DNA of 64,000 nt from an uncultured Candidatus Saccharibacteria bacterium (GTDB lineage Bacteria > Patescibacteriota > Minisyncoccia > Phycocordibacterales > UBA5272). The stretch's first letter is position 1; every line of letters begins with the position of its first letter. Shown piece after piece: positions 2,430 through 54,559 of the stretch. The notes beneath the pieces are model-generated. The model did not search any database. It was not told the DNA's origin and worked only from the letters and a program-made list of their open reading frames with translations. The stretch covers positions 8,677 through 72,676 of the forward strand of contig CAYXKW010000005.1 in assembly GCA_964464695.1 (NCBI GenBank), in the 5' to 3' direction. Position numbers and translations under genes: made by a program.

Positions 2430-2430
2430 A

Positions 2431-2921: not shown

Positions 2922-4202
2922 ATGACTAAAAATATACAAGTCGTTTATCTATCAGTTGCCAGCCTTAACCCATCAGAGTACAATCCTCGCAAACATACAA
3001 CGGAACAAGCAAATCAGCTTAAAGAGAGTATTAAGCGATTCGGATTCATAGATCCAATAATCTGTAACAGTGCCAAAGGTCGAGAGAATACCGTTATCGG
3101 AGGGCACTTCCGCCTTGAGATGGCGAAGGAACTCAACATCACAGAAGTTCCTGTTGTGTTCGTAAACATTTCAGATCTTGAAAAGGAACAGGAGTTGAAT
3201 GTTCGCTTGAACAAAAACACTGGAGAATTTGATTTTGAAAAACTCCAACAATTAAACTTCGATATGCTGCTCGATATCGGTTTCGATCAAAAGGAGCTCG
3301 ACGACATATGGAATAACAAACTTAACAACAATGAGTTCAATGTCGAAGAAGAACTCAAGAAGATTAAGGAACCAAAGACACGAAAAGGCGACATTATTGT
3401 AATGGACGGATGCAGATTGATCTGTGGCGATTCACTTCTCCCTGAAACACTTCAAAAGCTTTTTGGTGACGAACGTGCTTCCTTAATAATCTCGGATCCA
3501 ATCTACAACATTTCTGTGAATTATGACAGTGGAATTGGGGGCAAACAAAGTTATGGAGGTACAGTCGATGATAACAAGACAGACAAGGAGTATGAAAACT
3601 TCTTGAGAAAGAGCATGGTCGCAGCACTCGCAGTAACAAAAGCTGATGCTAATATATTTTACTGGAGCGATCAGGCATATATCTGGCTTATTCAAACTCT
3701 CTACCGTGAACTTGGTATAACTAATCGTCGTGTGTGCATATGGTTGAAGAACTCACAAAATTGCGTACCTAAGGTAGCTTTCAACAAATGCTATGAACCG
3801 TGCACGTACGGTACTCGTGGTAAGCCGTATATTACAAAAGGTGTAAATGATCTCAATGAGATTATGAATGATGACATGACAACTGGTAATGATTTGTTAC
3901 AACAAGCACAAGATCATCTAACGGTATGGATGGAAAAGAGACTCTCTGGAAATGAGTACGAGCACAGCACTATGAAGCCAGATGAGGTCTATCAAAAAGC
4001 CATTCGTCGTTGTACAAAAATGAACGATATCATTCTTGATAGCTTCTCTGGTTCAGGAAGTACGATTATTGCAGGTATTAAGCTCAAACGCAGAGTGTAC
4101 GCTGTTGAAATTGAAGAAGTATTTTGTGACTTAACGATACGACGCTATGAAGCGTTAACAGGCAAAAAAGCAAAGGTTATCCGAAATGGCGAAAAAGGAT
4201 AA
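2922..4202 (+). CDS. ParB-like nuclease domain fused to a DNA methyltransferase, of the phage-type ParB/methylase kind
   Basis: N-terminal ParB/Srx-like region (IGGHFRLEMAKELNITEVPVVFV). C-terminal methyltransferase motif IV (SDPIYNI, a DPPY variant) lies upstream of motif I (ILDSFSGSGST), the beta-class order for N6A/N4C methyltransferases. Confidence 0.7.
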   Translation: MTKNIQVVYLSVASLNPSEYNPRKHTTEQANQLKESIKRFGFIDPIICNSAKGRENTVIGGHFRLEMAKELNITEVPVVFVNISDLEKEQELNVRLNKNTGEFDFEKLQQLNFDMLLDIGFDQKELDDIWNNKLNNNEFNVEEELKKIKEPKTRKGDIIVMDGCRLICGDSLLPETLQKLFGDERASLIISDPIYNISVNYDSGIGGKQSYGGTVDDNKTDKEYENFLRKSMVAALAVTKADANIFYWSDQAYIWLIQTLYRELGITNRRVCIWLKNSQNCVPKVAFNKCYEPCTYGTRGKPYITKGVNDLNEIMNDDMTTGNDLLQQAQDHLTVWMEKRLSGNEYEHSTMKPDEVYQKAIRRCTKMNDIILDSFSGSGSTIIAGIKLKRRVYAVEIEEVFCDLTIRRYEALTGKKAKVIRNGEKG

Positions 4203-4599
4203 AAAGGTTAAAGACTTTCTTGAACACCTTAACACCGTTCCCAATATTTCTCTCGCCTGTGAAAAAGTTGGCTTAGCGAGGAATACAATCTATCGTTGGT
4301 GTAAGGAAGATAAAGAGTTTCAGGAAAGTGTTGATAATGCACTTTTATGTGGCGTAGATTCTATTACAGATCTTGCAGAGAGTAAGCTCATAACTCATAT
4401 CAATAATGGAAACTTACGTTCTATTCAGTATTGGTTAGATAATCACAAAAAAGAGTATATACGACCACGAGTTATCGTAGATTCAAAAGATTCACTTGAA
4501 CCAATTTCGTACATTGAGATTCTTCCAGTAGATCCTAATAATCTTCCACCACCTCTACCGTTAAATGAATTTGATCTTCCTTTAGATTATATTGGTTAA
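4186..4599 (+). CDS. phage terminase small subunit-like HTH protein
   Basis: NTIYRWCKEDKEFQESVDNAL...LRSIQYWLDNHKKEYIRPR matches the conserved TerS N-terminal pattern (TVxRWL..EFR...AR..ADAL ... RLxVDTRKWxLSK). It overlaps the upstream gene by 17 nt. Confidence 0.55.
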   Translation: MAKKDKKVKDFLEHLNTVPNISLACEKVGLARNTIYRWCKEDKEFQESVDNALLCGVDSITDLAESKLITHINNGNLRSIQYWLDNHKKEYIRPRVIVDSKDSLEPISYIEILPVDPNNLPPPLPLNEFDLPLDYIG

Positions 4600-4733: not shown

Positions 4734-6056
4734 ATGGAGACAAGAACAATTGGAAAGATACATAGCTCTGTAACCTTATCAGAAGTAAGAGTTAAGTACT
4801 GTCTATATGCTAGAAAATCAACTGAGTCAGATGAAATGCAAGCTTTGTCGATAGATTCACAGATTAAAGAAATGGAAGCTATAGCAGAGCGTTTAGGACT
4901 TTATGTTGTAGAAGTTAAAAGAGAATCTCATTCAGCAAAAGCTTCGGGTCAACGACCAGTGTATAAAAAGCTATTATCAGAAATTGATCAAGGAAAGTTT
5001 AACGGTGTATTAACGTGGGCGCCAGATCGGTTAAGTAGAAATGCAGGCGACCTGGGATCACTTGTTGATTTAATGGATCAGCGAAAATTAATCCATATAC
5101 AAACATATGGTCAAACTTTTTCTAACTCTCCTAATGAAAAGTTCTTGCTCATGATTCTTTGTTCTCAAGCAAAACTAGAAAATGATAATAAAAGTATTAA
5201 TGTTAAAAGAGGATTGAGAGCAAGAGTTGAAATGGGGTTATGGCCATGTCGTCCACCAACAGGATATACGAAGTTTAAAAGAATGGATCAAAAGTGCGAG
5301 TCTGTTATAGATGAAGTAAGGGCACCAATAATTAAACAAATGTTTGAAAAGGTTGGGTACGATGGTTGGTCTGGTAGAAAGGTGTGGGGTTGGCTTAAAG
5401 ATGATAAAGATTTTAAGACAGAGAATAATATACATCTAAGCTTAGGTAACTTTTATCGACTACTGCAAAATCACTTCTATTATGGAAGATTTGAATTCCC
5501 TAAAAACTCAGGAAATTGGTATAACGGATCACACATTCCAATTATCACAAAAGAACTCTTTGATTTAGTTCAAGAGAAAATTAAGAGTCAAATATTAGAA
5601 CCTAAAACCGAACAAAAGGAATTCGCTTTTACAAAGATCATGACATGCGGTCTGTGTGGTTCTGGTATTACAGCAGACGAGAAATTTAAACACCAACAAA
5701 ATGGTAATGTTCATAGATATGTGTACTACAAATGCACAAGAACGAGAGATCAGAATTGTCCCTGTGGTTTCCTTAATGAAGAGGATTTAATAGAACAACT
5801 AAAAGACCTCATTGATGATCTTAATATTCAGATAGTCCCCATGAAAGAGAAAATCACTAATGAGGTCAGAAGATTCAAGAAGTTTCAACATATGCTACTA
5901 GGAAACAAAACACCAATATCCGTTAAAGATATTGATATTCGTAACTATGCGAAGTTTATTTTGGTTGAGGGAGAAATGGAGGAAAAGAGAGAATTTTTTA
6001 AATGTCTCAATTCTAAGATACTACTATCGAATAAGAAAATTTTATTAGTAAATTAA
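4734..6056 (+). CDS. large serine recombinase, a phage-type integrase/resolvase
   Basis: N-terminal resolvase domain with catalytic Ser (YARKSTESDE ... LTWAPDRLSRN), a recombinase domain and a Cys-rich zinc ribbon (CGLCGS...YYKCTRTRDQNCPCG). 440 aa. Confidence 0.8.
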   Translation: METRTIGKIHSSVTLSEVRVKYCLYARKSTESDEMQALSIDSQIKEMEAIAERLGLYVVEVKRESHSAKASGQRPVYKKLLSEIDQGKFNGVLTWAPDRLSRNAGDLGSLVDLMDQRKLIHIQTYGQTFSNSPNEKFLLMILCSQAKLENDNKSINVKRGLRARVEMGLWPCRPPTGYTKFKRMDQKCESVIDEVRAPIIKQMFEKVGYDGWSGRKVWGWLKDDKDFKTENNIHLSLGNFYRLLQNHFYYGRFEFPKNSGNWYNGSHIPIITKELFDLVQEKIKSQILEPKTEQKEFAFTKIMTCGLCGSGITADEKFKHQQNGNVHRYVYYKCTRTRDQNCPCGFLNEEDLIEQLKDLIDDLNIQIVPMKEKITNEVRRFKKFQHMLLGNKTPISVKDIDIRNYAKFILVEGEMEEKREFFKCLNSKILLSNKKILLVN

Positions 6057-6094: not shown

Positions 6095-6646
6095 ATGGAA
6101 GCTCTAATCTTAACTTATAAATATTGGATTATATTGCCTTTAGCTATTGTAGAAGGTCCAATTATAACCATAATAGCTTCATTTCTCGCTAGTATTGGTT
6201 TATTAAATGTATTTTTCGTTTACCCATTAGTTCTTTTAGGGGATATCATCGGTGACATTATTCATTATTTTGTTGGTAGAGTTGGTGGTAATAGAATAAT
6301 AAAAAAGTACGGTCATTATTTTAAAGTAACAGAAGATAATATTCATGAAGTTAAAGCGAAGTATTTTAATAATAAAAATTCACTTTGGAAAATTATTACT
6401 CTAAGTAAAATTACACATGCCCCATCATCTCTAATTATGTTGGTTTCTGGTATTGTGAAAATTGATTTTAAGCAGTTTTTACTAATTACGACTGTTAATA
6501 ATATTTTTAAAGTACTTGCATTCGTGCTCATCGGTTTCTTCTTCGGTAAGTCATACTTAGTGATTGAAAATTATATTAGTAATTCTTGGGTAATTTTTCT
6601 ACCAATATTTGGAATCATTGTTTACTTTTTATATTCAAAAAAATAA
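6095..6646 (+). CDS. DedA/SNARE-associated (VTT domain) membrane protein
   Basis: Multi-TM protein with the DedA-like motif LAIVEGPIITIIASFLASIG and a GDIIGDIIHYFVGR region. Confidence 0.6.
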   Translation: MEALILTYKYWIILPLAIVEGPIITIIASFLASIGLLNVFFVYPLVLLGDIIGDIIHYFVGRVGGNRIIKKYGHYFKVTEDNIHEVKAKYFNNKNSLWKIITLSKITHAPSSLIMLVSGIVKIDFKQFLLITTVNNIFKVLAFVLIGFFFGKSYLVIENYISNSWVIFLPIFGIIVYFLYSKK

Positions 6647-6649
6647 TGT

Positions 6650-7339
6650 ATGAAAAAGATATCTTGTATAATTCCAACTTATAATGAAGAAGAACAAATA
6701 GAAACAATACTCAGAACTTTAAACCCGTTACTGGGTAATACTTTAGACGAGGTAATAGTAATTGATGACTTTTCTTCTGACAGAACGAAGAAAATAGTTA
6801 AAGGACACAAAAATATCCTTTTGATTGAACATACAAAAAATGAAGGGAAGAGTAAAACCATTGCAGACGGAATTAGGGGAGCAAAGAATGATATCATTCT
6901 AATGATTGATGGTGACCTAATTGGATTAAACGAAACTAATATTTTAAATCTAGTTAATCCTATACTTACTAACTTAGCTGATATATCTATAAGTTATAGA
7001 GGTAATACACCTAAGTGGTGGATTCATTTTTTTAAGATCGAAACTTTTAGTGGAGAGAGATGTTTCTATAAAGAATTACTTTTGGACAATTTAAAGGAAA
7101 TAGAATATTTACCAGGATATGGATTAGAGGTTTACATCAATGAAAAGTTAGTTAGGAATAAACTTAGGATAAAGTCTGTCCCGATGAATAATGTAACAAT
7201 AAAATTTAAATGGCACAAACATGGCGTGATTATTGGTGTTTGGAAAGAACTATTAATGTGGAAAAATATTTTTGCCACAGTAAACCCTATAAAATTAATT
7301 ATACAAGTCGCAAAAATGAAGAAACTTTTGATTGATTAA
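6650..7339 (+). CDS. family 2 glycosyltransferase, polyprenyl-phosphate sugar transferase-like
   Basis: ISCIIPTYNEEEQI ... VIVIDDFSSDRT ... DGDL. GT-A fold with a DxD motif. Confidence 0.7.
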   Translation: MKKISCIIPTYNEEEQIETILRTLNPLLGNTLDEVIVIDDFSSDRTKKIVKGHKNILLIEHTKNEGKSKTIADGIRGAKNDIILMIDGDLIGLNETNILNLVNPILTNLADISISYRGNTPKWWIHFFKIETFSGERCFYKELLLDNLKEIEYLPGYGLEVYINEKLVRNKLRIKSVPMNNVTIKFKWHKHGVIIGVWKELLMWKNIFATVNPIKLIIQVAKMKKLLID

Positions 7340-8430
7340 AGTTTATACTTTCGTAGTATTGGTTTGTAGATATATAAAGAGATTTTTGACAATACAGACC
7401 ATAGCAATCTTCTTGCTAGATTTAAGTGTTGTGTATTAATAAACATATATTCAATTTCTGGCACAGCTCCTCTATTTAACTTAAAACTCGGTGCCCCAGA
7501 ACTTATATTGAGAAATAAACCATTATCATATGCGTATTTAATAATATAGATTAAACATCTTCTGTATAAAGCATTCTCGCTTGGTCGGTTAATTTCGTAT
7601 CCAACAATTGGAGCTGTAACAGTAACAGTGTCACCTATTAATCCAACTACAGCAACAAATTTACCCTGTTCTATATCTAGTAGTAACCTTAGATGCAGTA
7701 GATTTTCTTTACAAAGTTTTTGCATATAAAGTGCCGTATATTGAATATTTTCTTCAGTGTATTTCTCTAGGTAGAGTTTATTATAAAGAACTTCTGCAAT
7801 TTTAAAATGCTCAATATTATCAACATCAGGGCTGGTGAATATGTACTTTTCTGATTTTAATAGTTCAAGATCCCTGATAGCATCTCTTTTCTTTAAATTA
7901 AAACTTGGAAATATATAGACTTGTCTTGTAACAATTTGTATCCACCCATTTCTGAGTAAATTAGTAAGAATTTCATTATTTTGAGTTCCATTTATAGACC
8001 TAATTGCCAGTGTGTGGTCAGGATGTCTCTTTACTGCTTTTTTAGTTAAAGATTTAATATCTATGTCTTTCCAATACTCACTAAAAAAGTTAGTTGATAA
8101 CATATAGTTATTTAATGTTTGTATCTTATCTACTTTAAAAAATGAAAGGAAAGACGAGAATAAATTTATTACCACTCTCATAAGAAAAATGAGTACAAAA
8201 TTTTTTATCTTGTGAAGTTCTACTTTAGAGTAGTTTATGATCATCCCATTAGGGGAAACAACATAGCAGTTGTTTTCAAATACCTCGTCTGTAACTGTTG
8301 AGAGTATTAGTTTATTATCAAGTTCATAATATTCAATTTTAGTTTTTATATTATTAAAAAGATGTTCAATTTTATTTGAACAAAGTATTGAATGTAATTT
8401 GTATGAAAAGTCTTTTTCTAAGTTATCCAT
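7336..8430 (-). CDS. FemAB/CelD-like GNAT-fold acyl(aminoacyl)transferase (putative)
   Basis: The C-terminal half shows a GNAT-like pattern (VAVVGLIGDTVTVTAPIVGY...ALYRRCLIYIIKYAYDNGLFLNISSG). It overlaps the upstream ATP-grasp gene by 8 nt. Identification is weak. Confidence 0.3.
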   Translation of the reverse strand: MDNLEKDFSYKLHSILCSNKIEHLFNNIKTKIEYYELDNKLILSTVTDEVFENNCYVVSPNGMIINYSKVELHKIKNFVLIFLMRVVINLFSSFLSFFKVDKIQTLNNYMLSTNFFSEYWKDIDIKSLTKKAVKRHPDHTLAIRSINGTQNNEILTNLLRNGWIQIVTRQVYIFPSFNLKKRDAIRDLELLKSEKYIFTSPDVDNIEHFKIAEVLYNKLYLEKYTEENIQYTALYMQKLCKENLLHLRLLLDIEQGKFVAVVGLIGDTVTVTAPIVGYEINRPSENALYRRCLIYIIKYAYDNGLFLNISSGAPSFKLNRGAVPEIEYMFINTQHLNLARRLLWSVLSKISLYIYKPILRKYKL

Positions 8431-9514
8431 TGTATTCTATATCATGAGTGGTTGCCGCGGCAAAAGAAGTTTTATAACGTATTGTTATATACATCATTTC
8501 TAAAAAAGATAAAATCTGTGCCTTAACAGGAAGCTCACCGACAACATCCCTTGCTTTTTTATAGTCATGAATCAACTCAGGCAATCTTCCTTCATGGAGA
8601 TATTTAAACCAAAACATTAGATATATACTTTTACTTATTCTACAACTTTCAAACGGTTTTGTATCGTCTGATGAAAAAGTATTATTCTTAAAGTAAATTG
8701 AATCTGACAATAAATGCAATCCACTAGTTGCTCTTGGATTACACTCAAGTACATAGAGGTCTTTTCCATCATCAATAAAATCAAAAGCAATCTGACCATT
8801 ATATTTTGTATCCTTAGCAAACTGCTCTATAAAATTATTACATTTTTCATTTTTTGTTAATTCAAAATATGTTGACGCGGCATTATTTACTAAATATTTT
8901 GGCTTATAAACAATCTGACTAATAACCTTTCCTTTGTGAATTATGGCGTAATTACATAAATAAGATCCTTTTATAAACTGTTGTTGCACCCAAGGATACT
9001 TTTCTGATATATCTAATCCTAGTATGCTTTTTTTGGTGACATCCCTTATAACATTTGTTCCAAATCTAGAAAAAACAGGTTTGAGGAGTGTATCTTTATC
9101 TTCAGTTCTGATTTGATTAATACTTTCTATTAACCTCATCTCGGGTACTTTAACAAAATTATTCATAAATTGCTTAAATGTAAATTTATTATGAAGTCCA
9201 AGCAATAGACCATTCTCAGGAATAAAAACCTTTTCCTTTAGTGCTGTATCTTGAACGACTGAGCTTAAGTAAAAAACGTCTTCACAGGTAGGTATAACAA
9301 AATCACTGTTCTCTATAATCCTAATGATCTCTCTTTTATAGTTTTTGAAATCTAGTTTTGGTGAAGGTATTTTTATAAATTTTACATTTTTATAATATTT
9401 AGCCATCGGAAAGTACAAAGAGTCAACTACAGTAACGTCGTGACCAGATCTTTGCATAATTTTAACCCATTCTATGGTTACAGGGGCTCTTGGACAAGTA
9501 ATAGTAACTTTCAT
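8423..9514 (-). CDS. ATP-grasp domain enzyme, probably a carboxylate-amine ligase
   Basis: DLYVLECNPRATSGLHLL is typical of the ATP-grasp C-terminal catalytic region. 363 aa. Confidence 0.6.
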   Translation of the reverse strand: MKVTITCPRAPVTIEWVKIMQRSGHDVTVVDSLYFPMAKYYKNVKFIKIPSPKLDFKNYKREIIRIIENSDFVIPTCEDVFYLSSVVQDTALKEKVFIPENGLLLGLHNKFTFKQFMNNFVKVPEMRLIESINQIRTEDKDTLLKPVFSRFGTNVIRDVTKKSILGLDISEKYPWVQQQFIKGSYLCNYAIIHKGKVISQIVYKPKYLVNNAASTYFELTKNEKCNNFIEQFAKDTKYNGQIAFDFIDDGKDLYVLECNPRATSGLHLLSDSIYFKNNTFSSDDTKPFESCRISKSIYLMFWFKYLHEGRLPELIHDYKKARDVVGELPVKAQILSFLEMMYITIRYKTSFAAATTHDIEYNG

Positions 9515-9516
9515 AT

Positions 9517-10023
9517 TTATGAGACTAGTTTTTTAACAAGAGAACTACTATTTAAAATAATATTGTGAGTACCAACTAAGTTTTTATGAATGTGTGAATT
9601 ATTATATTTTGTAAAAATAAAAGGAACAGTAGTATCAAATAAAAATCCATATGATTTTTGTTCTCTTACCTGTATATGTGTTTTGTATGGTAATTTATTG
9701 ATTATTTTTCTAAACCACACAAATTTCACTTGGTGGGGCGAAGCTATTGTTATAATGCTATCTATTTTTTTGTATAGTTCTTCTTTTAAAGAGTAAGAAA
9801 TAACTCCACCAAAAGAGTGTCCTACCAAAATAAACTTACCATCCTCTTTTTCTAAGAAAGAGTTAATCTCACCAATTAATGCAAGATGTTTACCTGTTTG
9901 GTGTAATGTATAAAACATCGGAAAATAAAAAACCTCCATACCTATGGATTCAAAAGCTTTTAAAATAAGATAATTTCTAAATCTAAAATTATGTATACCT
10001 TGTATAAAAATTACTTTTTTCAT
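9517..10023 (-). CDS. alpha/beta hydrolase, thioesterase or lipase-like
   Basis: GxSxG nucleophile elbow (LVGHSFGGVIS). 168 aa. Confidence 0.5.
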   Translation of the reverse strand: MKKVIFIQGIHNFRFRNYLILKAFESIGMEVFYFPMFYTLHQTGKHLALIGEINSFLEKEDGKFILVGHSFGGVISYSLKEELYKKIDSIITIASPHQVKFVWFRKIINKLPYKTHIQVREQKSYGFLFDTTVPFIFTKYNNSHIHKNLVGTHNIILNSSSLVKKLVS

Positions 10024-10031
10024 GAGAGGTA

Positions 10032-10946
10032 TTAAAAATCAACAAAAGACTTTGTTGGATTGTATTTTAACATATTTTTAGCTTTGTTTATAGAAAGATA
10101 ATGGTTAGAAGTCATCTGGTGGACTATGTATTTACTTATAAAAGGCGCTTTTTTAATACTTAATAACTTAAAAAGAATCTCTAATATAGAACCAATTAAA
10201 AAAGCTACTTTTGTTGATATATATAGATTTTTTGCTTGTATATTAAACTTCTTTTTAACATGTGCCATTAGGCTATTTATTTTTACTGATTCTTGGTCTG
10301 CGATGTTAAAAATTTCTTTCTGAAATTCTTCTTTTGTTTCAATGCTGTTTTTAATTGCCAGACAAAGATTATCTATATGCGTTATTGAAATAGTATTATC
10401 ACCACTTCCTAAAATAATAAATCTATTAAATCTATGAGACCTTAATAATCTTGGTATAATTTTTTTATCCATAGCACCATAAATGACATGCGGTCTTAGT
10501 ATTATTTTTTGTGATTTACTATCATGATTTAAAACAACCAGTTCTGCTTCATATTTTGATTGACTATACCCATTTAAAAAATTACCACACATAGATGCCT
10601 CATCAATTGTGTGATTGATGTCCTCAGGGTCATAGACACTACATGAACTTATGTATATAAACTTTTGCAAGTTAGAAAAACTATCTAATGTGTTTTTCGT
10701 ACCAACACAATTATTCTCATAGCATTCCTTATAAGTTGCCCAATCATCAACGGTTCCAGCACAGTGAACTAAAACATCAATTTGAACTGGGTGACTTATT
10801 TGCCCATTAGATATGTCCCAATAAGTAAAGTTCTTGTCATTTTTTCTTCGCGAGAAACCAACAACATCATAGTTGTGTTTTTGTAAGTAAGTATAGAGAG
10901 AACCCCCTACAAATCCATTTACTCCAGTGATTCCTATTTTTAACAT
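10032..10946 (-). CDS. NAD(P)-dependent SDR, epimerase/dehydratase/reductase family
   Basis: N-terminal Rossmann motif GITGVNGFVGGSL. Its start is translationally coupled to the upstream AMP-ligase stop, so it could act as a reductase (R) domain partner. Confidence 0.6.
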   Translation of the reverse strand: MLKIGITGVNGFVGGSLYTYLQKHNYDVVGFSRRKNDKNFTYWDISNGQISHPVQIDVLVHCAGTVDDWATYKECYENNCVGTKNTLDSFSNLQKFIYISSCSVYDPEDINHTIDEASMCGNFLNGYSQSKYEAELVVLNHDSKSQKIILRPHVIYGAMDKKIIPRLLRSHRFNRFIILGSGDNTISITHIDNLCLAIKNSIETKEEFQKEIFNIADQESVKINSLMAHVKKKFNIQAKNLYISTKVAFLIGSILEILFKLLSIKKAPFISKYIVHQMTSNHYLSINKAKNMLKYNPTKSFVDF

Positions 10947-12469
10947 AAACTGTTACTAGTGATATAGTATTTTATTTTGTTCTTATCTATTTTTTGTGTT
11001 CTACCACTAAGAGGAAGTTCCATTATGATGATTTTATCAGGAAGAGCTGTTTTATCTATACTGTGCTCTCCTTTGCTTAATTCATTAAATATTCTTTTCT
11101 CAAAAGTCTTATTATCCTCTTGTAAGGTCATATCTTTTTCAATAGCTAAATAAATTTTCTCATCTTCTAATTCATCATTATAAATTCCCACCATTGCACA
11201 GTTTTTAATACCCCTTATATTACTTATCGTAGATTCAAAAATTGAGGGGTATATATTATAATTTTTTCTTATAATCATGTCTTTTTTTCTCCCTAATAGT
11301 ACTAGCCCATTTTTATCAAGAGTCCCTAGATCTCCAGTGTAATGTTCTGTTACCTTATCTAGTCCGAGGTATCTATTAAAAAGATTTTTTCCAGAAACAC
11401 AAATTTCATTGTCTATTATTCTTATTGTGACACCATTTGCAACTGTTCCTAGTAAGTCACCATTTGTATTTAAATTTATCTTATCTTGTAACTCCACATA
11501 CGAGATGGGTAATATTTCCGTTGCCCCGTAAACACAGATAACTTTTGTACTTTTAGATATTATTGTATTTAGTTTAGATAAAAATCCTTTTAAAACAGGA
11601 GCTGAGCCTAGGACGATTGTTTCAAGTGTATTTGGAAGTTTTACATTGTTTCGAGAACAAAACTCCATTGTTTGATTATACTCGGCAGGGATTCCAAAAG
11701 TTTTGTTTACTTTAAATTTAAGTACATCTTTATAAAACTTATCTGTTTTAAAATTAAGGTTACTTGGCAATACTACTCGTGACCCTGACAGGATAGACGC
11801 TAATAAAAAATGAAGTTGTGAGGAGTAGAAAATGTCAGTATGTTGTATATTAAGAATTTCTTCAATTTTTTTAAGTATTTCAAATAAGGATTCGTAGGTA
11901 TGAACCACGCCCTTCGGAATACCCGTTGTGCCAGATGTAAAAATAATTACAGAGTCTTTTTGATCATCTGTGCGTATTTCAGTAAAATTAGACTTATTAT
12001 TTTCAACTTTTTTAACGAGTATTTTATTAAGTTTTCTGAGTGTACTTATATCAGGAATATTTATATGGAACATCTTTATGAGAGTTTCAATATAAGGGGT
12101 GTTAATTATAGTGTTGAGAATCGGATCTACTAATACGTGTTCTGGTTTTGCAAAGTTAACTCTCCCAATAAAATTATCTTTCCCCATTGATGGGTCAGCT
12201 AAGACTAAAACACCACCAGCTCTAATAATTGCAAATATATACACAATACTTTCAATACTTGGTTTTGCTAGGAATAAGACTTTGTCCTCTTTTTTAAAAC
12301 CATTCTTAACTAAACGAATTGCTACTGAATCAATCTGAAGTAAAAAATCTTTAAAACTAATTTTTTTACCATTAGTAGTTTCTATAATTGATGTATCTTT
12401 TAGAAACTCTTTTTGTGAAAATAGTTTCTCTAAAATAAGATTAGAATACAAATTAATCTGTGATTTCAT
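10940..12469 (-). CDS. AMP-dependent synthetase/ligase, an adenylation enzyme
   Basis: AMP-binding core motif IFTSGTTGIPKGVVHT. 509 aa. It overlaps the upstream ACP gene. Confidence 0.75.
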   Translation of the reverse strand: MKSQINLYSNLILEKLFSQKEFLKDTSIIETTNGKKISFKDFLLQIDSVAIRLVKNGFKKEDKVLFLAKPSIESIVYIFAIIRAGGVLVLADPSMGKDNFIGRVNFAKPEHVLVDPILNTIINTPYIETLIKMFHINIPDISTLRKLNKILVKKVENNKSNFTEIRTDDQKDSVIIFTSGTTGIPKGVVHTYESLFEILKKIEEILNIQHTDIFYSSQLHFLLASILSGSRVVLPSNLNFKTDKFYKDVLKFKVNKTFGIPAEYNQTMEFCSRNNVKLPNTLETIVLGSAPVLKGFLSKLNTIISKSTKVICVYGATEILPISYVELQDKINLNTNGDLLGTVANGVTIRIIDNEICVSGKNLFNRYLGLDKVTEHYTGDLGTLDKNGLVLLGRKKDMIIRKNYNIYPSIFESTISNIRGIKNCAMVGIYNDELEDEKIYLAIEKDMTLQEDNKTFEKRIFNELSKGEHSIDKTALPDKIIIMELPLSGRTQKIDKNKIKYYITSNSLC

Positions 12470-12695
12470 TGTTAATTACCTTTAGTACATCACCTAGGGT
12501 TTTATATTTTCTAAATAGTTCTTTATTTTTAGGCTCAATGGTATATTTATTTTTAACTACAGCCAAAAGCTCCCCAAGATCTATCGAATCTTTAATATAG
12601 ATAGAAAGATCAGAAGATTCATTTAAGTCTTCTTGTATCTCAAATATGTAATTTAGTATCTCCACTAAGTTATCTTGTGTCATTTTGCTATGCAT
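12453..12695 (-). CDS. acyl carrier protein (phosphopantetheine-binding)
   Basis: 80-aa acidic protein with a DSIDLGEL serine attachment motif. Confidence 0.6.
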   Translation of the reverse strand: MHSKMTQDNLVEILNYIFEIQEDLNESSDLSIYIKDSIDLGELLAVVKNKYTIEPKNKELFRKYKTLGDVLKVINNEITD

Positions 12696-13479
12696 TTTTT
12701 CCTTTATAAAAAGATGACTGCTCCTCTTTGTATTTATGGTGTAGTGTACCCATTACTTTATCCCAGAAAGAAAAATACAACCCGTAATTTAAATAACCAT
12801 ATTTATGATGCATATTATGGTGGATAGAACTTGTAAAAACTGCACCAAGTTTTTTATTCATAGTAGGGGTTAGGAATTCATACCCCAAATGACCAATTGT
12901 GTTTCCTATAGAATTAATAATAAATACTGCTACAACCGTATAAATATGAACTGGAATAATAAGACACATTAATATAAAATAAAATCCAAAAATAACATTC
13001 CCCAGAGGACTAAAAGAGAAATTTGTGAATGGTGTTGGGTTTTTATTTGTATGGTGAACCGCATGAGTATATTTGAAGACTGTCTCATGTGAATGCATGA
13101 ATCGGTGCACCCAGTAAAAATATGTATCCTGAAGTCCTGCAAATAATAGTATTGTAAATACAAAGTATAGATTACTGTGTTCAGAAATATCAAAATATAC
13201 TTTTGTATATCCATGATTTACTAAAGATATTAAAATATAGGCTATTATAATATAACAAAGCATGCTTACTGTAGACCATTTAATATCGAAAATAATACTA
13301 TCTTTGCTTGGTTCTTCGCTCTGAATTTTGTAGTCTCTTAAAGTGTTCTTTTTTAATTTATATACATAAAGATAAGCTATTGATCCTAGAATATAGTTAC
13401 AAGATAAAAAAACACCCACAAATAAATAAAAGTAGTTTATATGATCTATTTGCAATAAATTGTTTAGATTTGAAAGCAT
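12688..13479 (-). CDS. fatty acid hydroxylase / sterol desaturase family membrane di-iron enzyme
   Basis: Histidine boxes HRFMHSH, HAVHH and HHNMHH in a multi-TM protein. Confidence 0.65.
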   Translation of the reverse strand: MLSNLNNLLQIDHINYFYLFVGVFLSCNYILGSIAYLYVYKLKKNTLRDYKIQSEEPSKDSIIFDIKWSTVSMLCYIIIAYILISLVNHGYTKVYFDISEHSNLYFVFTILLFAGLQDTYFYWVHRFMHSHETVFKYTHAVHHTNKNPTPFTNFSFSPLGNVIFGFYFILMCLIIPVHIYTVVAVFIINSIGNTIGHLGYEFLTPTMNKKLGAVFTSSIHHNMHHKYGYLNYGLYFSFWDKVMGTLHHKYKEEQSSFYKGKNA

Positions 13480-13575
13480 AATTATGACTTAATAATAGCA
13501 CAATTTACCTAAAATTTTAAAAAATAACAGCACCAAAGATAAAGGTACTGTCATATGTTTTTCAACATGTAAAAT

Positions 13576-14250
13576 CTATTGTTTCCAAACACTTTTAAGG
13601 AAAGACCCGTATTTGAGGAAATGCAAAGTCTGTTCATGAACCTGCCCTGAAAAAACAAGTCCTGTGTGACTTGTAAAAACTTTTGTATGGGGGATATTCT
13701 CCCCAACCTGAGTTTCACTAACTAGGACAACACCGTCATTTTCAAGTAACTTTTTATAACCCTCAAGACCTTTAGCGTTGGGGAGTAAATCAAGCAACTT
13801 AAACGTCGACGCTACCCTAAACAGATTAAAAGTATCATCCGTTCCTGCGATAACGCCAATGCGAACAGGCGTGTCTAGTGGCATTGTCACTCCGTCAGTT
13901 GCGATCAATCTTATTGCCTTAGGTAACATCCATGAAGTTTTGCCTTGAGAGATGGTTCTCCCTAGGATAGACCCATTGAGTGGTGATCCTAAGCAGACAA
14001 CCTTTTCAAGACTTGGGAACTGTTTCAAGTGGTATGCCGTGATTGTGCCCCCTAAACTATGACCAACAATAACCTGAGGGCGAAAATCATTAACTTCTTT
14101 GATAAATCTAGTTGTGATGTCATCTGTTTCTGGAATGAGTGGGTAGCTAAAGACTTTTACATCATATCCAGCATCCTTTAACTTTTTTACGAAAGGTGAC
14201 ATCAAAAACGCATTCATGAACATACCGTGAACTAAAAGAACTTTGTCCAT
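13576..14250 (-). CDS. alpha/beta hydrolase; start chosen at the internal MDKVLLVHGM
   Basis: GHSLGG nucleophile elbow. HG oxyanion motif near the N-terminus. Confidence 0.5.
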   Translation of the reverse strand: MDKVLLVHGMFMNAFLMSPFVKKLKDAGYDVKVFSYPLIPETDDITTRFIKEVNDFRPQVIVGHSLGGTITAYHLKQFPSLEKVVCLGSPLNGSILGRTISQGKTSWMLPKAIRLIATDGVTMPLDTPVRIGVIAGTDDTFNLFRVASTFKLLDLLPNAKGLEGYKKLLENDGVVLVSETQVGENIPHTKVFTSHTGLVFSGQVHEQTLHFLKYGSFLKSVWKQ

Positions 14251-14306
14251 TGCTAATCTCCTGTAATTAGAACTACAAATAAGACTACAGGAACACAACG
14301 ACTGAG

Positions 14307-14837
14307 TCAATTTGTCTTTAAAGAAATAGAAAATATATAACCATTATCTTCAAAGAGATTACTTATCCAGGTACTGTTTTCCTTTTTCAGAGTTATATAG
14401 CCCTTAACGTAAGTTACTATTTTATATTGATTTGGATTAGAAATTGTTTCGTCAGATTTCTGAACAGACTCTTTCAAAGACCACATAACAGTTTCTTGGG
14501 TTGTTGTCTTTTTATAGAATTTCGTTAAAATAGACAATTCATTTTCATCGCAACAATAACTAAGTAGTTCTCTTTTTCTTGGACGTAAGTATTCAACATC
14601 AATGCCTATATTAAAATCTTTACACAAAGCCACAAAAACTATTTCCTGTGAATCAGAAACCGAACAAAATAAATCTTCATGGTTGGATATGTAGGGTTTA
14701 TTGTTTTTCTTTTTTATCACCACATCAAGACCAAAAGCATTTTTAGCTAAAGTTTTAAGTAGCAGATATTTATCTGTGATACTTTTGTTTCCTATCTTAT
14801 AAAATACAACTTTTTTGTTTAAAACTATTTTTTGCAT
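14307..14837 (-). CDS. 4'-phosphopantetheinyl transferase (Sfp/AcpS superfamily)
   Basis: YISNHEDLFCSVS ... FNIGIDVEYLRPR resembles the PPTase motifs (SISHS / GIDIE). Confidence 0.5.
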   Translation of the reverse strand: MQKIVLNKKVVFYKIGNKSITDKYLLLKTLAKNAFGLDVVIKKKNNKPYISNHEDLFCSVSDSQEIVFVALCKDFNIGIDVEYLRPRKRELLSYCCDENELSILTKFYKKTTTQETVMWSLKESVQKSDETISNPNQYKIVTYVKGYITLKKENSTWISNLFEDNGYIFSISLKTN

Positions 14838-14876
14838 TATTTACTGTATAAGTTTAGTATACTAGATACCATACTC

Positions 14877-15881
14877 ATGAAATCTAAAATTACAGCGCTG
14901 GCATACTATTTGCCAGAAAAAATAGTGACCAATAGTGAAATAGAGGCTAAGTTACAACAAAATAACCCTCATCTACACATACCTGAAAACATTATAGGGA
15001 TAACCACAGGTATAAAATCTAGAAGGTTTTGTGGTGAAAACGAATATAACTCAACGTTAGCATCTAAGGCGGCACTAGTTTTATTTGAAAAATATAGTAT
15101 CAACCCAAAAGATATTGATTTACTTATTTTTGCTTCAGCAGGACAGGATCTCATTGAACCTGCAACTTCTCACATAGTGCAAGATATTTTAAAAACATCT
15201 TGTAGAGTATTTGATATAAAAAATGCTTGTAATGGATTTATAGACGCATTAATTGTAGCAGATGCTTTTATTAAATCTGGAATACATAAAAATATACTTA
15301 TTGTAACAGGTGAGGTTTGTTCAAGTGTTATTAAATGGAATCTAAAAGATAGAGATGATTTAAAAAATAGTTTCCCAGGGTATACGTTAGGAGATATGGG
15401 GACAGCTATTTTAGTGCAAGAATCAAATAATGATTTTGGACTAGTAGTGAGTGAGTGTTTAAATGATAGCAGTAAATGGAAGGTTGGAACTCTACCAACT
15501 GGAGGATCTAGGCACCCTCGAGGTGATGAGTACACATATTTTAGTGGTGATGGTCCACAGTTGAGAGATTCTTTTGCAAAAATTGCACCAAAGTTTTTTA
15601 ACGATTTCCTAATAAAAAATAATATAGATAAAGATACTATTGACCATATCTGTATGCACCAAGTTTCTAAAGCTTACTTAGAAGAAATGGTTTCTTCATT
15701 GAAAATTGATCCTAATAAGATTATTCATACTGCGGAACAATTCGGTAATGTCGCCGCCGCCACAATTCCACTTCAGCTTGCACTATTAAATGAAAAAGAA
15801 AAGATAAAAAAAGGAGATAAAATTTTACTAATAGGTTTAGCGGGAGGGGTTAGTGTTGAGCTTGTATATATTATTTGGTAA
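14877..15881 (+). CDS. 3-oxoacyl-ACP synthase III-like (FabH/KAS III family) condensing enzyme
   Basis: MKSKITALAYYLPEKIVTNSEIE has a FabH-like N-terminus. Cys region NACNGFIDAL. C-terminal GNVAAATIPL. Start taken at an internal Met of the 14832 ORF. Confidence 0.7.
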   Translation: MKSKITALAYYLPEKIVTNSEIEAKLQQNNPHLHIPENIIGITTGIKSRRFCGENEYNSTLASKAALVLFEKYSINPKDIDLLIFASAGQDLIEPATSHIVQDILKTSCRVFDIKNACNGFIDALIVADAFIKSGIHKNILIVTGEVCSSVIKWNLKDRDDLKNSFPGYTLGDMGTAILVQESNNDFGLVVSECLNDSSKWKVGTLPTGGSRHPRGDEYTYFSGDGPQLRDSFAKIAPKFFNDFLIKNNIDKDTIDHICMHQVSKAYLEEMVSSLKIDPNKIIHTAEQFGNVAAATIPLQLALLNEKEKIKKGDKILLIGLAGGVSVELVYIIW

Positions 15882-17352
15882 ATAATTCTAATATTTTTTG
15901 TCTATTTGGTTTCAATGTATGAGTATAAGGAAAATCAGTACTGTTAAATAAAGTCACTTTTTCTATTTTAATATTGTTAGGTAATTTTGAATGAAGATGA
16001 TCTAAATCTATTGTAATCTTTTGTTCAGATTTTATTGCACAGTATATAACTGGGGAATCTTGTCTTAGTTCATGCACGATGCAAACCTCTTCAGTATCCG
16101 TAATAGTAGAGATAATATACTCCAAATCTTCAGCAAAAATCTTATCTCCAGTTGGCCATACAATTAGATTTTTAGTTCTACCTTTCAGTACTAAATTGTT
16201 ATTCTTATCAAAGTCAACAACATCACCTGTATTAAATTCAGTATTACTATAATTTGGATAATATCCTAAAAATATATTATCTCCTGATACCACTAGTTCA
16301 TTATTTTCATTTTTTGTATATTTTAAACCCTTTACAATCTGACCAACATTACCCTCTTTCCTTTTTTGGTTTATAGATATTGAGATAACAGGTGATGTCT
16401 CAGTTAGCCCATAACCAAGATGAACTTTATATCCGAGTCCTTGAAAGAAATCATCTGTTTCTTTGCTTAACATTGCCCCACCAACGACAAAACTTTTCAG
16501 ACTTGTACCTATTTGATTTCTGATAACACTAAACAATACTCTTCTTACTATACTTGGGGCATACGATGAAAGTATAATAAATCTCTTCACTAGATTTCTA
16601 ATATTTTTGTTACGAATCTTTCTAAGAATAGATGATTGTATTAAATACAAAACTTTAGGAACAACTATTATAGTTTTTATCTTATATTTTCTTATAGCTT
16701 TTATTATTTTAAATGAATCAGGTTTTTCTAAAAAAACTATATGTGAACCAACTAGCAGAGGTATTATTAGTCCTGTTGTTTGTTGATAAGCATGGGACAT
16801 TGGTAAAATACTAAGTACAGACTCTTCTTTTGTATGGTGATATATATCAAGAATTTGGTATGCATTTGTTAGAATATTCTTCTGACTTAGCATTACTCCC
16901 TTTGGTATACCCCATGTACCAGAAGTAAAAAGTATTTCTGAAACATCATTTGAATTGCTGTTAAATAATGTTTCTGTGCGTGTTTCTCGTGACAGTAGTT
17001 CTTCTATGTGTAAAACATGACCATTTTTTAATGTGTATGAATTAGAAATAACTAGTATAGGTTTAATATTTTCAATGACACTATCTATAAAGTTTTGACT
17101 TACTCTAGTGTCAACAGGCACTATTACCCCACCTTTTAAGATTACAGCAAAATAGATACAAACCCATTCTATATTTGGTATATCAAATAAAACAACCCTG
17201 TCACCTTTCTTCACTTCATGTAACTTAGAAATATATTTGTATATCTGCTTATACACATCACCATACGTTATATTAATTTCACTTTCAAAACTAGAAAAAG
17301 CAGTATCGTTGTTATCTTTAAATCTGTCTACTAATTGTTTGAAAGAGTCCAT
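15871..17352 (-). CDS. AMP-dependent synthetase/ligase, a fatty-acyl-AMP ligase-like second adenylation enzyme
   Basis: LFTSGTWGIPKGVMLS AMP-binding motif. 493 aa. Confidence 0.7.
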   Translation of the reverse strand: MDSFKQLVDRFKDNNDTAFSSFESEINITYGDVYKQIYKYISKLHEVKKGDRVVLFDIPNIEWVCIYFAVILKGGVIVPVDTRVSQNFIDSVIENIKPILVISNSYTLKNGHVLHIEELLSRETRTETLFNSNSNDVSEILFTSGTWGIPKGVMLSQKNILTNAYQILDIYHHTKEESVLSILPMSHAYQQTTGLIIPLLVGSHIVFLEKPDSFKIIKAIRKYKIKTIIVVPKVLYLIQSSILRKIRNKNIRNLVKRFIILSSYAPSIVRRVLFSVIRNQIGTSLKSFVVGGAMLSKETDDFFQGLGYKVHLGYGLTETSPVISISINQKRKEGNVGQIVKGLKYTKNENNELVVSGDNIFLGYYPNYSNTEFNTGDVVDFDKNNNLVLKGRTKNLIVWPTGDKIFAEDLEYIISTITDTEEVCIVHELRQDSPVIYCAIKSEQKITIDLDHLHSKLPNNIKIEKVTLFNSTDFPYTHTLKPNRQKILELFTK

Positions 17353-18331: not shown

Positions 18332-18405
18332 GGTGACCCCACGGAGAGTCGAACTCCGCTTACCGGCATGAAAAGCCGATGTCCTAACCGATAGACGATG
18401 GGGCC
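18332..18405 (-). tRNA. tRNA-Glu (UUC)
   Basis: Reverse complement GGCCCCATCGTCTATCGGTTAGGACATCGGCTTTTCATGCCGGTAAGCGGAGTTCGACTCTCCGTGGGGTCACC folds as a cloverleaf. Acceptor stem is 7 bp, anticodon loop TTTTCAT gives UUC, and the T-loop is GTTCGACT. Confidence 0.85.
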
Positions 18406-18439: not shown

Positions 18440-18538
18440 CCTCCGGCATGAAAAGCCGACTGCGCCTCACGGCGTGATTTACTAATCACCTAACCGATAG
18501 ACGAATTAGCAGATTCGTGGCTTGGCCCGATGGGGCCA
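18440..18538 (-). pseudogene. tRNA-Glu-like 5' fragment (first ~43 nt) split by two hairpin-forming insertions, with no T-arm or acceptor 3' strand
   Basis: Reverse complement reads GGCCCCATCG [GGCCAAGCCACGAATCTGCTAATTC] GTCTATCGGTTAGG [TGATTAGTAAATCACGCCGTGAGGCGCAG] TCGGCTTTTCATGCCGG. The three blocks are identical to tRNA-Glu positions 1-10, 11-24 and 27-43. Confidence 0.6.
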
Positions 18539-18766: not shown

Positions 18767-18839
18767 GGGCGGTTAGCTCAGTTGGTAGAGCGCCACATTG
18801 ACGTTGTGGATGTCAGAGGTTCGACTCCTCTATCGCCCA
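18767..18839 (+). tRNA. tRNA-Val (GAC)
   Basis: GGGCGGTTAGCTCAGTTGGTAGAGCGCCACATTGACGTTGTGGATGTCAGAGGTTCGACTCCTCTATCGCCCA. Anticodon loop TTGACGT gives GAC. Acceptor stem is 7 bp. Confidence 0.85.
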
Positions 18840-18896
18840 CAGAAATACAAAAAGCAGAATCACATGATTCTGCTTTTTGTATTTCTGTGGGCGATA
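18831..18896. repeat. perfect 30-bp inverted repeat (hairpin) whose 5' arm includes the last 9 nt of tRNA-Val; 6-nt loop cacatg
   Basis: 18831-18860 is exactly the reverse complement of 18867-18896. A second 9-bp hairpin, gaaaatgaa/ttcattttc, lies at 18898-18919. Confidence 0.85.
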
Positions 18897-19243: not shown

Positions 19244-19669
19244 ATGAACACTTCTATTACATGGAACGAACAGTATTCTATTAATGTCCCCTCAATCGAT
19301 GAGCAACATAAATATTTCATTAAGCTTTGCAATGATCTCTTAGCACTTGGAACAAAAGAATCCATAGATAGGCAAGATGCTCTAATTGGCATTATGAAAT
19401 TTGGTGATTATACTGCATACCACTTGGCTGAAGAAGAAGAGTTTCTTATCAAAGTAAATTCCCCTGATGCATTTATCCACGTACATGCTCACAGTCAGTT
19501 CAGAGAGAAAATAAATGAATACATCACTCTTATTCGTATTGAAACAAGTGATGTGAAAAAAGTCACCTTAGAAACATCTACATTTGCAAGCACATGGCTT
19601 TTGGAGCACATTGAATTAATTAAGAAGAACTCTACTCAAACAGAAACAAAACTTGGAGAATTCGCATAA
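19244..19669 (+). CDS. hemerythrin-like metal-binding protein (bacteriohemerythrin family)
   Basis: N-terminal ITWNEQYSINVPSIDEQHKYFIKLCNDL, then His-rich HVHAHSQF. Matches the hemerythrin HHE pattern. Confidence 0.6.
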   Translation: MNTSITWNEQYSINVPSIDEQHKYFIKLCNDLLALGTKESIDRQDALIGIMKFGDYTAYHLAEEEEFLIKVNSPDAFIHVHAHSQFREKINEYITLIRIETSDVKKVTLETSTFASTWLLEHIELIKKNSTQTETKLGEFA

Positions 19670-19678
19670 CTACACACA

Positions 19679-21430: not shown

Positions 21431-21459
21431 CAAATGCAGCATGTTATACTTTATCTCAT

Positions 21460-54554: not shown

Positions 54555-54559
54555 GATAA

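Follow-up and report, generated by a model that had tools for sequence, protein, structure and literature searches.

An OleA-like condensing enzyme with its own carrier set and an ATP-grasp/tandem-GNAT pair in a gene cluster of an uncultured Saccharibacteria bacterium

We analysed a stretch of 64,000 nucleotides (the window) from an uncultured Candidatus Saccharibacteria bacterium (assembly GCA_964464695.1, contig CAYXKW010000005.1, positions 8,677 to 72,676), in which eleven genes between window positions 7336 and 17352 code for a condensing enzyme with the fold of beta-ketoacyl-acyl carrier protein synthase III (KAS III), two AMP-binding ligases, an acyl carrier protein (ACP), a 4'-phosphopantetheinyl transferase (PPTase), a fatty-acid (FA) hydroxylase, a short-chain dehydrogenase/reductase (SDR), two serine hydrolases, an ATP-grasp ligase and a tandem-GNAT transferase. 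An earlier note, made by a model from the sequence alone, had described them as a self-contained acyl- or lipid-tailoring cluster supplied with an ACP, PPTase, condensing enzyme and hydroxylase of its own, and this description held. The cluster is best read as an oleACD-type module that owes its autonomy to a carrier system of its own and is linked to a tailoring pair of wide occurrence, here in candidate-phyla bacteria. We give an even chance to the view that it is an Ole-type module for head-to-head fatty-acid condensation and beta-lactone formation which, together with its tailoring enzymes, lies on a mobile island.

Window proteins were scored against Pfam and NCBIfam, with the curated NCBIfam cut-offs used as thresholds for membership. 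Loci used for comparison carry numbers with the prefix L.

The condensing enzyme and its ligase and reductase partners

The condensing enzyme aligned end to end with OleA from Xanthomonas campestris (PDB 3row, 106.8 bits). Its DLIEPATSH segment fell on DYLEPSTAS of OleA, where FabH has DMQFPSTAT, so that a Glu-Pro pair occupies the position of OleA Glu117. The Glu117-Pro pair is found in nearly all OleA proteins, is essential and is unique within the thiolase superfamily, the glutamate serving as the general base from the partner subunit (PMC7064751). The window enzyme also has HQVS like OleA, while FabH has HQAN, and shares with OleA, not with FabH, a C-terminal Trp. The Cys-His-Asn triad is kept, the cysteine of NACNG, the histidine of MHQVS and the asparagine of FGNVAA aligning with the catalytic residues of both FabH and OleA. 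All five KAS orthologues compared (window, L006, L007, L087 and L088) retain (I/L)EPAT, HQVS and the C-terminal Trp. By these motifs the plus-strand enzyme, which had been taken for a generic KAS III, is OleA-like, and it would be expected to condense two acyl thioesters without decarboxylation.

A glutamate base and head-to-head chemistry are also common to enzymes of the PpyS, MxnB and CorB type, and the cluster could accordingly be imagined to make an alpha-pyrone or similar ring out of two carrier-bound chains, as a small exported signal or antibiotic. The dedicated ACP and the major facilitator superfamily (MFS) exporters of L087, L088 and L101 would suit such a product. However, the end-to-end similarity of the condensing enzyme is to OleA, and its conserved OleC- and OleD-like partners are foreign to pyrone synthase clusters; we regard pyrone-type chemistry as very improbable.

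These partners are the second AMP-binding ligase (ligase 2) and the SDR, whose genes overlap by 7 nt and follow each other in the same order as oleC and oleD. The two best NCBIfam matches of the SDR were OleD models (147.2 and 123.9 bits), both over the full length, and its top PDB match was NSDHL, a sterol dehydrogenase of the 3-beta-hydroxysteroid dehydrogenase (3-beta-HSD) type. It carries a glycine-rich NAD(P)-binding motif (GITGVNGFVGG) and YSQSK, which fits YxxxK. The SDR is thus a candidate OleD/3-beta-HSD-like 2-alkyl-3-oxoacid reductase. Ligase 2 has the adenylation motifs TSGTTGIPKG, YGATE and GRKKD. Its top NCBIfam match was PRK09274 (198 bits, cut-off 478), followed among others by OleC models, a pattern that was not seen for the first ligase (ligase 1). 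We consider ligase 2 a candidate OleC/PRK09274-like enzyme, either a beta-lactone synthetase or a second acyl activator.

The same genes had been read in the earlier note as a disassembled carboxylic acid reductase (CAR) or an adenylation-carrier-reductase module of the type found in non-ribosomal peptide synthetases (NRPS), with an R-domain-like SDR. Ligase 2 would then load the ACP, and the SDR would release the acyl chain reductively as an aldehyde or alcohol. The genes run in the order ACP, ligase, SDR and overlap at their stop and start codons, which fits this arrangement, as do the cluster's own PPTase and partial matches of the SDR to Pfam NAD_binding_4 (54 bits) and to the thioester reductase model TIGR01746 (57 bits, residues 55-236). 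However, the cut-off of TIGR01746 is 213 bits, and the CAR model gave only 16.7 bits against 1300, compared with 147 bits over the full length for OleD; the top PDB match is of the 3-beta-HSD type. In addition, the amino-acid adenylation model TIGR01733 gave only 82-87 bits for the two ligases where 317 are required, many loci have homologous ligase-SDR pairs but no carrier protein, and L006 keeps the ACP and the ligase while lacking the SDR. With an OleA-like condensing enzyme beside them, neither the R-domain label nor the split CAR/NRPS module was supported, and we consider reductive release highly unlikely.

To place the condensing enzyme among its relatives, 83 loci were compared, 80 of them from a metagenome scan with a KAS alignment and three from further contigs. 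Its nearest metagenomic relatives (35-52% identity) lie in KAS-ligase-SDR trios or in operons of KAS, a family 2 glycosyltransferase (GT2), a cytochrome P450, ligase and SDR. In the trios of L108, L114 and L145, the ligase and SDR are 42-43% identical to those of the window. All five genes of the longer operon were present in 28 of the 83 loci, and many of the others are cut by contig ends. Compared with an operon of this kind, represented by L129, identity is 38% for the KAS, 28% for ligase 2 and 28% for the SDR. The grouping of the condensing enzyme with OleC- and OleD-type genes thus recurs in both arrangements.

[quoted passage not shown] The L129-type operons, whose gene order differs slightly from that of A. 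atraurantiacus, and the A. atraurantiacus cluster itself have the same five functions as the window. In contrast to both, the window uses a di-iron FA hydroxylase in place of the P450, its GT2 is not detectably orthologous and its gene order is different. Beyond the L129 type it adds the ACP, PPTase, ligase 1, two serine hydrolases, ATP-grasp ligase, tandem GNAT and a DedA protein.

The lipstatin (lstABCD), nocardiolactone (nltABCD) and OleABCD systems likewise set a Glu-Pro thiolase and an ANL ligase next to a 3-beta-HSD-type SDR. The first two, which correspond to oleACD without oleB, have no OleB-type decarboxylase and use fatty-acid-derived substrates; the window resembles them in both respects, its substrates being predicted. 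It has a single KAS where they have the LstA/B or NltA/B pair, and it lacks an NRPS or formyltransferase of their type, having the ATP-grasp ligase and tandem GNAT instead, in a candidate-phyla host. All three window proteins scored far below the curated Ole cut-offs and are therefore relatives, not members, of the Ole families. In its logic, the core corresponds to the oleACD, lipstatin and nocardiolactone pathways and to the published, predicted OleA-glycosyltransferase-OleC-P450-OleD type. The claim that no characterised system matches the cluster therefore does not apply to the core; it stands for the combination, since we found no publication on an oleACD-type module joined to a carrier-protein loading set and an ATP-grasp/tandem-GNAT pair.

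One further arrangement was seen on an 82-kb contig, where L094:6445-11008 codes for a Cupin_8/JmjC oxygenase, a ligase, an SDR and a Glu-Pro KAS. This KAS (49% identity) is the closest relative of the window KAS outside the candidate-phyla version of the cluster (variant B).

Carrier set, tailoring genes and the ATP-grasp/tandem-GNAT pair

At least ten independent contigs carry this gene set in the same order, at 38-96% amino-acid identity, which bears out the conserved synteny that the earlier note had proposed to look for. The closest genome locus (L006), in a Candidatus Saccharibacteria metagenome-assembled genome (MAG), has the same gene order at 68-92% identity; the next closest, in a Candidatus Kaiserbacteria MAG, is 29-53% identical.

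The ACP had no Pfam match and only a weak NCBIfam match (E = 0.0079). However, a profile of its orthologues matched solved ACPs in the PDB over the full length (E = 0.001), with its serine in register with the DS(L/I)D site, and the motif IKDSIDLGE is invariant in five orthologues. The PPTase gave weak NCBIfam matches to AcpT, EntD and HetI and is kept in L006, L007, L087, L088 and L101. Every variant-B locus keeps the ACP motif and the PPTase, and also the convergent overlap of the ligase 1 and KAS genes. Ligase 1 matched only generic long-chain acyl-CoA/ACP synthetases and is a candidate fatty-acid activator that may load ACP or CoA. Its earlier label as FAAL-like (fatty acyl-AMP ligase) was not borne out; by NCBIfam and PDB matches, neither ligase is specifically FAAL-like or amino-acid-activating. 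A literature search for a Saccharibacteria ACP/PPTase cluster returned nothing relevant.

The FA hydroxylase has the His boxes HRFMH, HAVHH and HHNMH and at least three hydrophobic segments. In related clusters the oxygenase slot is variable, being filled by a P450, a JmjC/cupin protein, an FA hydroxylase or a Rieske protein. The FA hydroxylase was considered as a one-for-one substitute for the Rieske protein, and this was rejected since L088 and L095 carry both. Two fusions were found in L101: FA_hydroxylase with the AMP-binding domain of ligase 2 (776 aa, L101:6761-9091, minus strand) and SDR with the PGAP1-like small hydrolase (478 aa, L101:5328-6764, minus strand). Both also occur in L103; they may reflect sequencing frameshifts, but the two contigs agree. 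The fusions indicate that the hydroxylase, ligase 2, SDR and small hydrolase are functionally linked.

The two hydrolases have serine elbows, GHSLGG in the 224-aa protein, which we guess to be a thioesterase, and GHSFGG in the 168-aa protein. OleB is an alpha/beta hydrolase of the haloalkane dehalogenase type, about 300 aa long, with an Asp nucleophile. Neither hydrolase fits an OleB-type protein by size, by its serine elbow or by any NCBIfam match.

Several flanking genes travel with the cluster. The GT2 gene, which is plausibly part of it, is kept beside it in L006, L007, L089 and L090, and GT2 is a fixed member of the KAS-GT2-P450-ligase-SDR operons. The DedA protein, a possible flippase or exporter, is 92-98% identical in L006, L089 and L090, and an MFS gene takes its place in L087, L088 and L101. 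Small Lnb_N proteins are encoded inside the cluster in L007 and L087, and Lnb_N is present in L090, so that the Lnb_N protein of the window is a possible cluster member. In L087, a Coq4-family protein (L087:9321-10004) is encoded between the Lnb_N gene and the ATP-grasp gene, and an MFS transporter follows the GNAT gene.

The remaining two proteins form a pair that extends far beyond this cluster. The ATP-grasp protein scored 305 bits with PRK06849 (cut-off 406), an NCBIfam model annotated 'hypothetical protein', for which a Pseudomonas orthologue scored 424.8. Its AlphaFold model (pLDDT 90) is nearest in fold to PurK, the L-amino-acid ligases 3vot and RizA, and PylC. It is a probable carboxylate-amine ligase related to the PRK06849 family. 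The tandem GNAT had no match to any Pfam family at E <= 0.01, FemAB and DUF2156 included, and no PDB sequence match. Its AlphaFold model (pLDDT 94.6) is nearest to FemX, MprF and Sbb17, which are aminoacyl-tRNA-dependent transferases, and we propose from this model that it probably draws on aminoacyl-tRNA as they do. With FemX/FemA, the C-terminal domain of MprF (DUF2156) and Sbb17 it has the tandem-GNAT fold in common at only 9-15% identity. Compared with MprF, it lacks the flippase domain, and its family always comes as a pair or a fusion with an ATP-grasp protein.

A scan of one genome per species recovered relatives of the ATP-grasp protein in at least 593 loci. When the open reading frames (ORFs) of 80 loci were clustered, the tandem GNAT directly followed the ATP-grasp in 70. 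The GNAT family comprises 1237 clusters at 50% identity and includes proteins of 660-763 aa with ATP-grasp N-terminal halves. Such single-chain ATP-grasp::tandem-GNAT fusions (P0216, 721 aa; P0215, 763 aa; P0210, 660 aa) indicate that the two act as a unit.

In most of the 80 clustered loci the pair lies within a seven-gene cassette of KAS III, SDR, a metallo-beta-lactamase-fold (MBL) protein, U447, ATP-grasp, GNAT and Rieske. U447 is TIGR02304, an 'F390 synthetase-related' PaaK-like ligase, and the MBL protein is lactonase-like. The cassette was found in at least ten phyla (L003, 6047-13142; L035, L067, L086 and about 55 other loci), with hosts including Pseudomonas, Vibrio, Legionella, Shewanella, Aliarcobacter, Campylobacter, Helicobacter, Paenibacillus and Streptococcus porcinus, and it often stands beside integrases or defence genes.

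What the cassette and the window share is the orthologous ATP-grasp/tandem-GNAT pair (about 30-50% identical, its genes always neighbours), a KAS III-fold enzyme and an SDR from one family. Unlike the window, the cassette has a PaaK-like ligase and an MBL hydrolase, no ACP or PPTase, and KAS proteins that carry (I/M/L)P(C/Y/F)NAA and PHQAS without Glu-Pro. The window KAS and the cassette KAS belong to different motif classes, Glu-Pro versus a hydrophobic residue followed by Pro, and orthology between them was rejected. The candidate-phyla version lacks the MBL protein and the TIGR02304 ligase and, in most cases, the Rieske protein, and has two AMP-binding ligases, ACP, PPTase and FA hydroxylase instead; all three missing components are absent from the window, L006 and L007, and Rieske is present in L088 and L095.

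No published characterisation of the pair or of the seven-gene cassette was found in a literature search. The mangotoxin mbo operon was considered as a match to the cassette and rejected, since none of ATP-grasp, KAS III, epimerase and lactamase is mentioned in its paper. A Ppl-like neighbour in Streptococcus porcinus prompted us to consider anti-phage defence, which was rejected when PADLOC was negative: among the proteins of the window and of the Aliarcobacter and Streptococcus cassettes it gave only a chance-level match of 16.7 bits.

A proposed pathway and its alternatives

In the pathway that we propose, substrates, order of steps, lactone closure, aminoacyl-tRNA donor and product are predictions built on family and fold assignments, the OleA motif, synteny, gene fusions and island features. 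The PPTase would turn the 80-aa ACP into its holo form, and ligase 1 would activate scavenged fatty acids and load them onto ACP or CoA. The OleA-like thiolase, with its Glu-Pro base, would then join two acyl thioesters non-decarboxylatively to give a 2-alkyl-3-keto acid. This step would need no malonyl-ACP and therefore no type II fatty acid synthesis (FAS II), which Saccharibacteria are generally expected to lack. Reduction by the OleD-like SDR would yield a 2-alkyl-3-hydroxy acid, and the OleC-like ligase 2 would adenylate its carboxylate and close a beta-lactone, or otherwise activate the acid. Since no OleB-type decarboxylase is encoded, no olefin would be made. The membrane di-iron hydroxylase would add a hydroxyl to the alkyl chain, the GT2 and the ATP-grasp/tandem-GNAT pair would add sugar and one or more amino acids to the scaffold, and DedA (or MFS, in the three loci that have it instead) would move the product across or within the membrane.

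Several observations weigh against an Ole-type condensation leading to a beta-lactone. The condensing enzyme scored slightly better with FabH models (192 bits) and with Neisseria FabH (127 bits) than with OleA: PRK09258, a 338-residue model that we take to be of OleA type, gave 179.5 bits (cut-off 285), and the generic FabH model PRK09352 gave 192.3 (cut-off 249). Ligase 2 was below the cut-off of both OleC models, with 110.6 bits of 850 for the Shewanella type and 100.7 of 900 for the Xanthomonas type, and scored higher (162 bits) with a generic long-chain acyl-CoA ligase model; its closest solved relatives, over the full length, are malonyl-CoA synthetases. The OleD scores of the SDR are below the cut-off of 580. 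In L006, about 106 nt (L006:5794-5899) lie between ligase 2 and the small hydrolase where the SDR is missing, so that the pathway may do without reduction, and hence lactone closure, or obtain it from elsewhere. Acyl-CoA is the substrate of known Ole enzymes, whereas the window has an ACP, a PPTase and a second ligase. Closure of the lactone would also leave the ATP-grasp ligase without an obvious carboxylate substrate on the scaffold.

Some of these points would suit the main rival, a FabH-type, decarboxylative route to a lipoamino acid resembling an ornithine lipid. Ligase 2, acting like MatB, would make malonyl-ACP or malonyl-CoA, ligase 1 would provide the primer, the KAS would perform one extension and the SDR would give a 3-hydroxyacyl chain; after a hydrolase had freed the chain, the ATP-grasp ligase would link an amino acid to it as an amide and the tandem GNAT would add a second aminoacyl group. 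The catalytic triad and FabH scores of the KAS and the solved relatives of ligase 2 are consistent with this. A dedicated ACP suits FabH chemistry, the ATP-grasp ligase, with L-amino-acid ligases and PylC among its nearest folds, needs a free carboxylate, and the ornithine-lipid hydroxylase OlsE belongs to the FA_hydroxylase family. However, the KAS has Glu-Pro and HQVS where FabH has Phe-Pro and HQAN, its closest relatives are grouped with OleC- and OleD-like partners and no ACP, and ligase 2 gave 106 bits with the malonyl-CoA synthase model (cut-off 558), less than with PRK09274. We think this route rather unlikely, all of its steps included.

With mycolic condensation (FadD32, Pks13, CmrA) the proposed pathway would share chemical logic alone, in that an acyl-AMP ligase loads a carrier, two chains are condensed and a 3-keto group is reduced to give the 2-alkyl-3-hydroxy motif of mycolic acids. 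Pks13 is a decarboxylative type I polyketide synthase, whereas the window enzymes are discrete and the thiolase is OleA-like, and no homology is claimed. In the boldest reading, which we consider unlikely, a candidate-phyla bacterium that makes no fatty acids would use the island to turn two host-derived fatty acids into a two-tailed 2-alkyl-3-hydroxy scaffold of mycolic type, capped with aminoacyl and glycosyl head groups. Outcomes that fit this scaffold are a glycerol-free membrane or surface lipid, or a lipstatin-like aminoacylated beta-lactone that inhibits serine hydrolases of the host.

Gene layout, mobile setting and implications

The ORF map of the window has ORFs exactly where the earlier note had put them, and the family assignments were upheld for all eleven genes, the ACP and the GNAT by way of the orthologue profile and the predicted structure. 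Among those confirmed by Pfam, orthologue profile or AlphaFold fold are the ACP, PPTase, hydroxylase, both hydrolases, ATP-grasp ligase and Fem-like transferase. The genes and their neighbours are listed in Table 1.

Table 1. Cluster genes and neighbouring features, in window coordinates
Feature	Coordinates	Strand	Basis
AMP-ligase 1	15871-17352	-	Pfam AMP-binding, 176 bits
OleA-like thiolase, KAS III fold	14877-15881 (longest ORF from 14832)	+	Pfam ACP_syn_III and ACP_syn_III_C
PPTase	14307-14837	-	Pfam ACPS, 30.8 bits (cut-off 25)
Serine alpha/beta hydrolase	13576-14250 (longest ORF to 14310)	-	Abhydrolase matches
Membrane di-iron FA hydroxylase	12688-13479	-	FA_hydroxylase PF04116, 92.8 bits
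ACP, 80 aa	12453-12695	-	Orthologue profile; no Pfam match
AMP-ligase 2	10940-12469	-	Pfam AMP-binding, 146.8 bits
Extended SDR	10032-10946	-	Pfam Epimerase, 3Beta_HSD, NAD_binding_4
Small serine hydrolase, 168 aa	9517-10023	-	PGAP1-like, 35.2 bits
ATP-grasp ligase	8423-9514	-	Pfam ATP-grasp_3
Tandem-GNAT transferase	7336-8430	-	Predicted fold; no Pfam match
GT2	6650-7339	+	PF00535, 77 bits; convergent with the GNAT gene, 4-nt overlap
DedA/VTT membrane protein	6095-6646	+	VTT_dom, 45.7 bits; hydrophobic segments
Lnb_N (DUF4105-type) protein, N-terminal hydrophobic segment	17440-18261	+	Lnb_N, 141.8 bits
Large serine recombinase	4734-6056	+	Resolvase, Recombinase and Zn_ribbon_recom domains
tRNA-Glu	18332-18405	-	ARAGORN and Rfam

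Ten translationally coupled minus-strand genes had been described, and their families and positions stand. However, tight coupling (an overlap or a gap of at most 8 nt) is limited to the seven genes from FA hydroxylase through GNAT; gaps of about 56 nt separate the PPTase from the hydrolase gene and about 96 nt the latter from the FA hydroxylase gene. Between ligase 1 and the other nine lies the KAS gene on the plus strand, in convergent overlap with the 3' end of the ligase gene. Gene calls place the likely starts 15 codons (KAS) and 20 codons (hydrolase, 224 instead of 244 aa) downstream of those of the longest ORFs. A scan for promoters and terminators gave counts equal to the shuffled expectation, AT-rich DNA making such a scan uninformative.

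The GC content is 0.28-0.32 over 6-18 kb and mostly 0.33-0.43 elsewhere in the window. The edges of this low-GC block are marked by the large serine recombinase on one side and tRNA-Glu on the other. A homologue of the recombinase (50-96% identity) adjoins the cluster in L006, L087, L089, L090 and L100-L104, representing at least five lineages, and rve integrases flank the cluster in L101. The cluster is most likely a mobile, self-contained biosynthetic island in low-GC DNA. On the metagenomic contig L089, from a related genome, it lies beside the same tRNAs and the same SPOUT methyltransferase, TsaD and Wzy_C genes; since the surroundings are the same, the island is fixed in this lineage.

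A search for attachment sites found no convincing direct repeat flanking 4.7-18.3 kb, only a partial copy of tRNA-Glu beyond the tRNA. This copy (18443-18504; 17 nt exact, 72% over 46 nt) lies immediately upstream of the complete gene and may be an integration remnant or a decayed tRNA. Directly upstream of the recombinase, at 1450-4599, are an AbiGi-like gene that narrowly misses the Pfam cut-off, a ParB-N/adenine-methyltransferase fusion and an HTH_Tnp_1_2 gene, and the mobile element may reach to about 1.4 kb. L089 lacks the Lnb_N gene, synteny with the window resuming at tRNA-Glu, and it also lacks a block of hemerythrin, PAS histidine kinase and response regulator genes (19244-21861). Both are lineage-specific insertions or deletions around tRNAs.

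These genes might merely look exotic and be ordinary housekeeping enzymes of lipid metabolism (for lipid A, phospholipids or the acylation of lipoproteins), and the Lnb_N, DedA and GT2 genes at the edges could be cited in favour. However, no window protein matched LpxA/D, PlsX/Y/C or FabD/G/Z/I in Pfam or NCBIfam; the LpxA/D- or PlsX/Y-type assignments that the earlier note had named as refuting its reading did not arise. The low-GC island with its recombinase, the patchy distribution with the exact proteins on very few contigs, and the absence of the Lnb_N gene from a related genome also speak against it, and we hold a housekeeping role to be extremely improbable.

Further features of the window lie outside the island. 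At 18831-18896, a perfect inverted repeat of 32 nt around a 2-nt loop begins within the 3' end of tRNA-Val (18767-18840). TsaD (22423-23604, 393 aa) gives two separate matches to the TsaD model, suggesting an insertion in its N-terminal part; homologues are 79-92% identical, and nearly all of the 120 closest are 393 aa long. A surface-polysaccharide region (25467-52295) codes for a Wzy_C ligase-like protein of 738 aa, several glycosyltransferases, an RfbH-like aminotransferase, a Wzx-like flippase, a mannose-1-phosphate guanylyltransferase and an acetolactate-synthase-like thiamine-diphosphate enzyme. A VirD4/TraD-like coupling protein (662 aa) adjoins a Lamin-tail/PKD-domain protein (53220-56548), and the two may belong to an apparatus for conjugation or DNA uptake. 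The 3' end of the 16S rRNA gene (63644-64000, minus strand) is about 2.5 kb from tRNA-Ile (61033-61108), with ORFs between, and no 23S gene is present in the 60 kb following it, so that the rRNA genes are unlinked.

Candidate-phyla bacteria are believed to produce hardly any lipids or specialised metabolites themselves. An island that needs only free fatty acids would represent rare lipid-derived chemistry in epibionts and a candidate tool in the interaction with their hosts, and it would extend Ole-type chemistry to carrier-protein-bound substrates and to new phyla. If the reading as a two-tailed, mycolic-type scaffold were right, the ATP-grasp/tandem-GNAT pair, with its at least 593 loci, would be a new NRPS-independent, tRNA-dependent unit for adding amino acids to natural products. 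Since the pair and the seven-gene cassette are widespread in Pseudomonas, Vibrio, Legionella and Campylobacter, their products are approachable in cultivable organisms.

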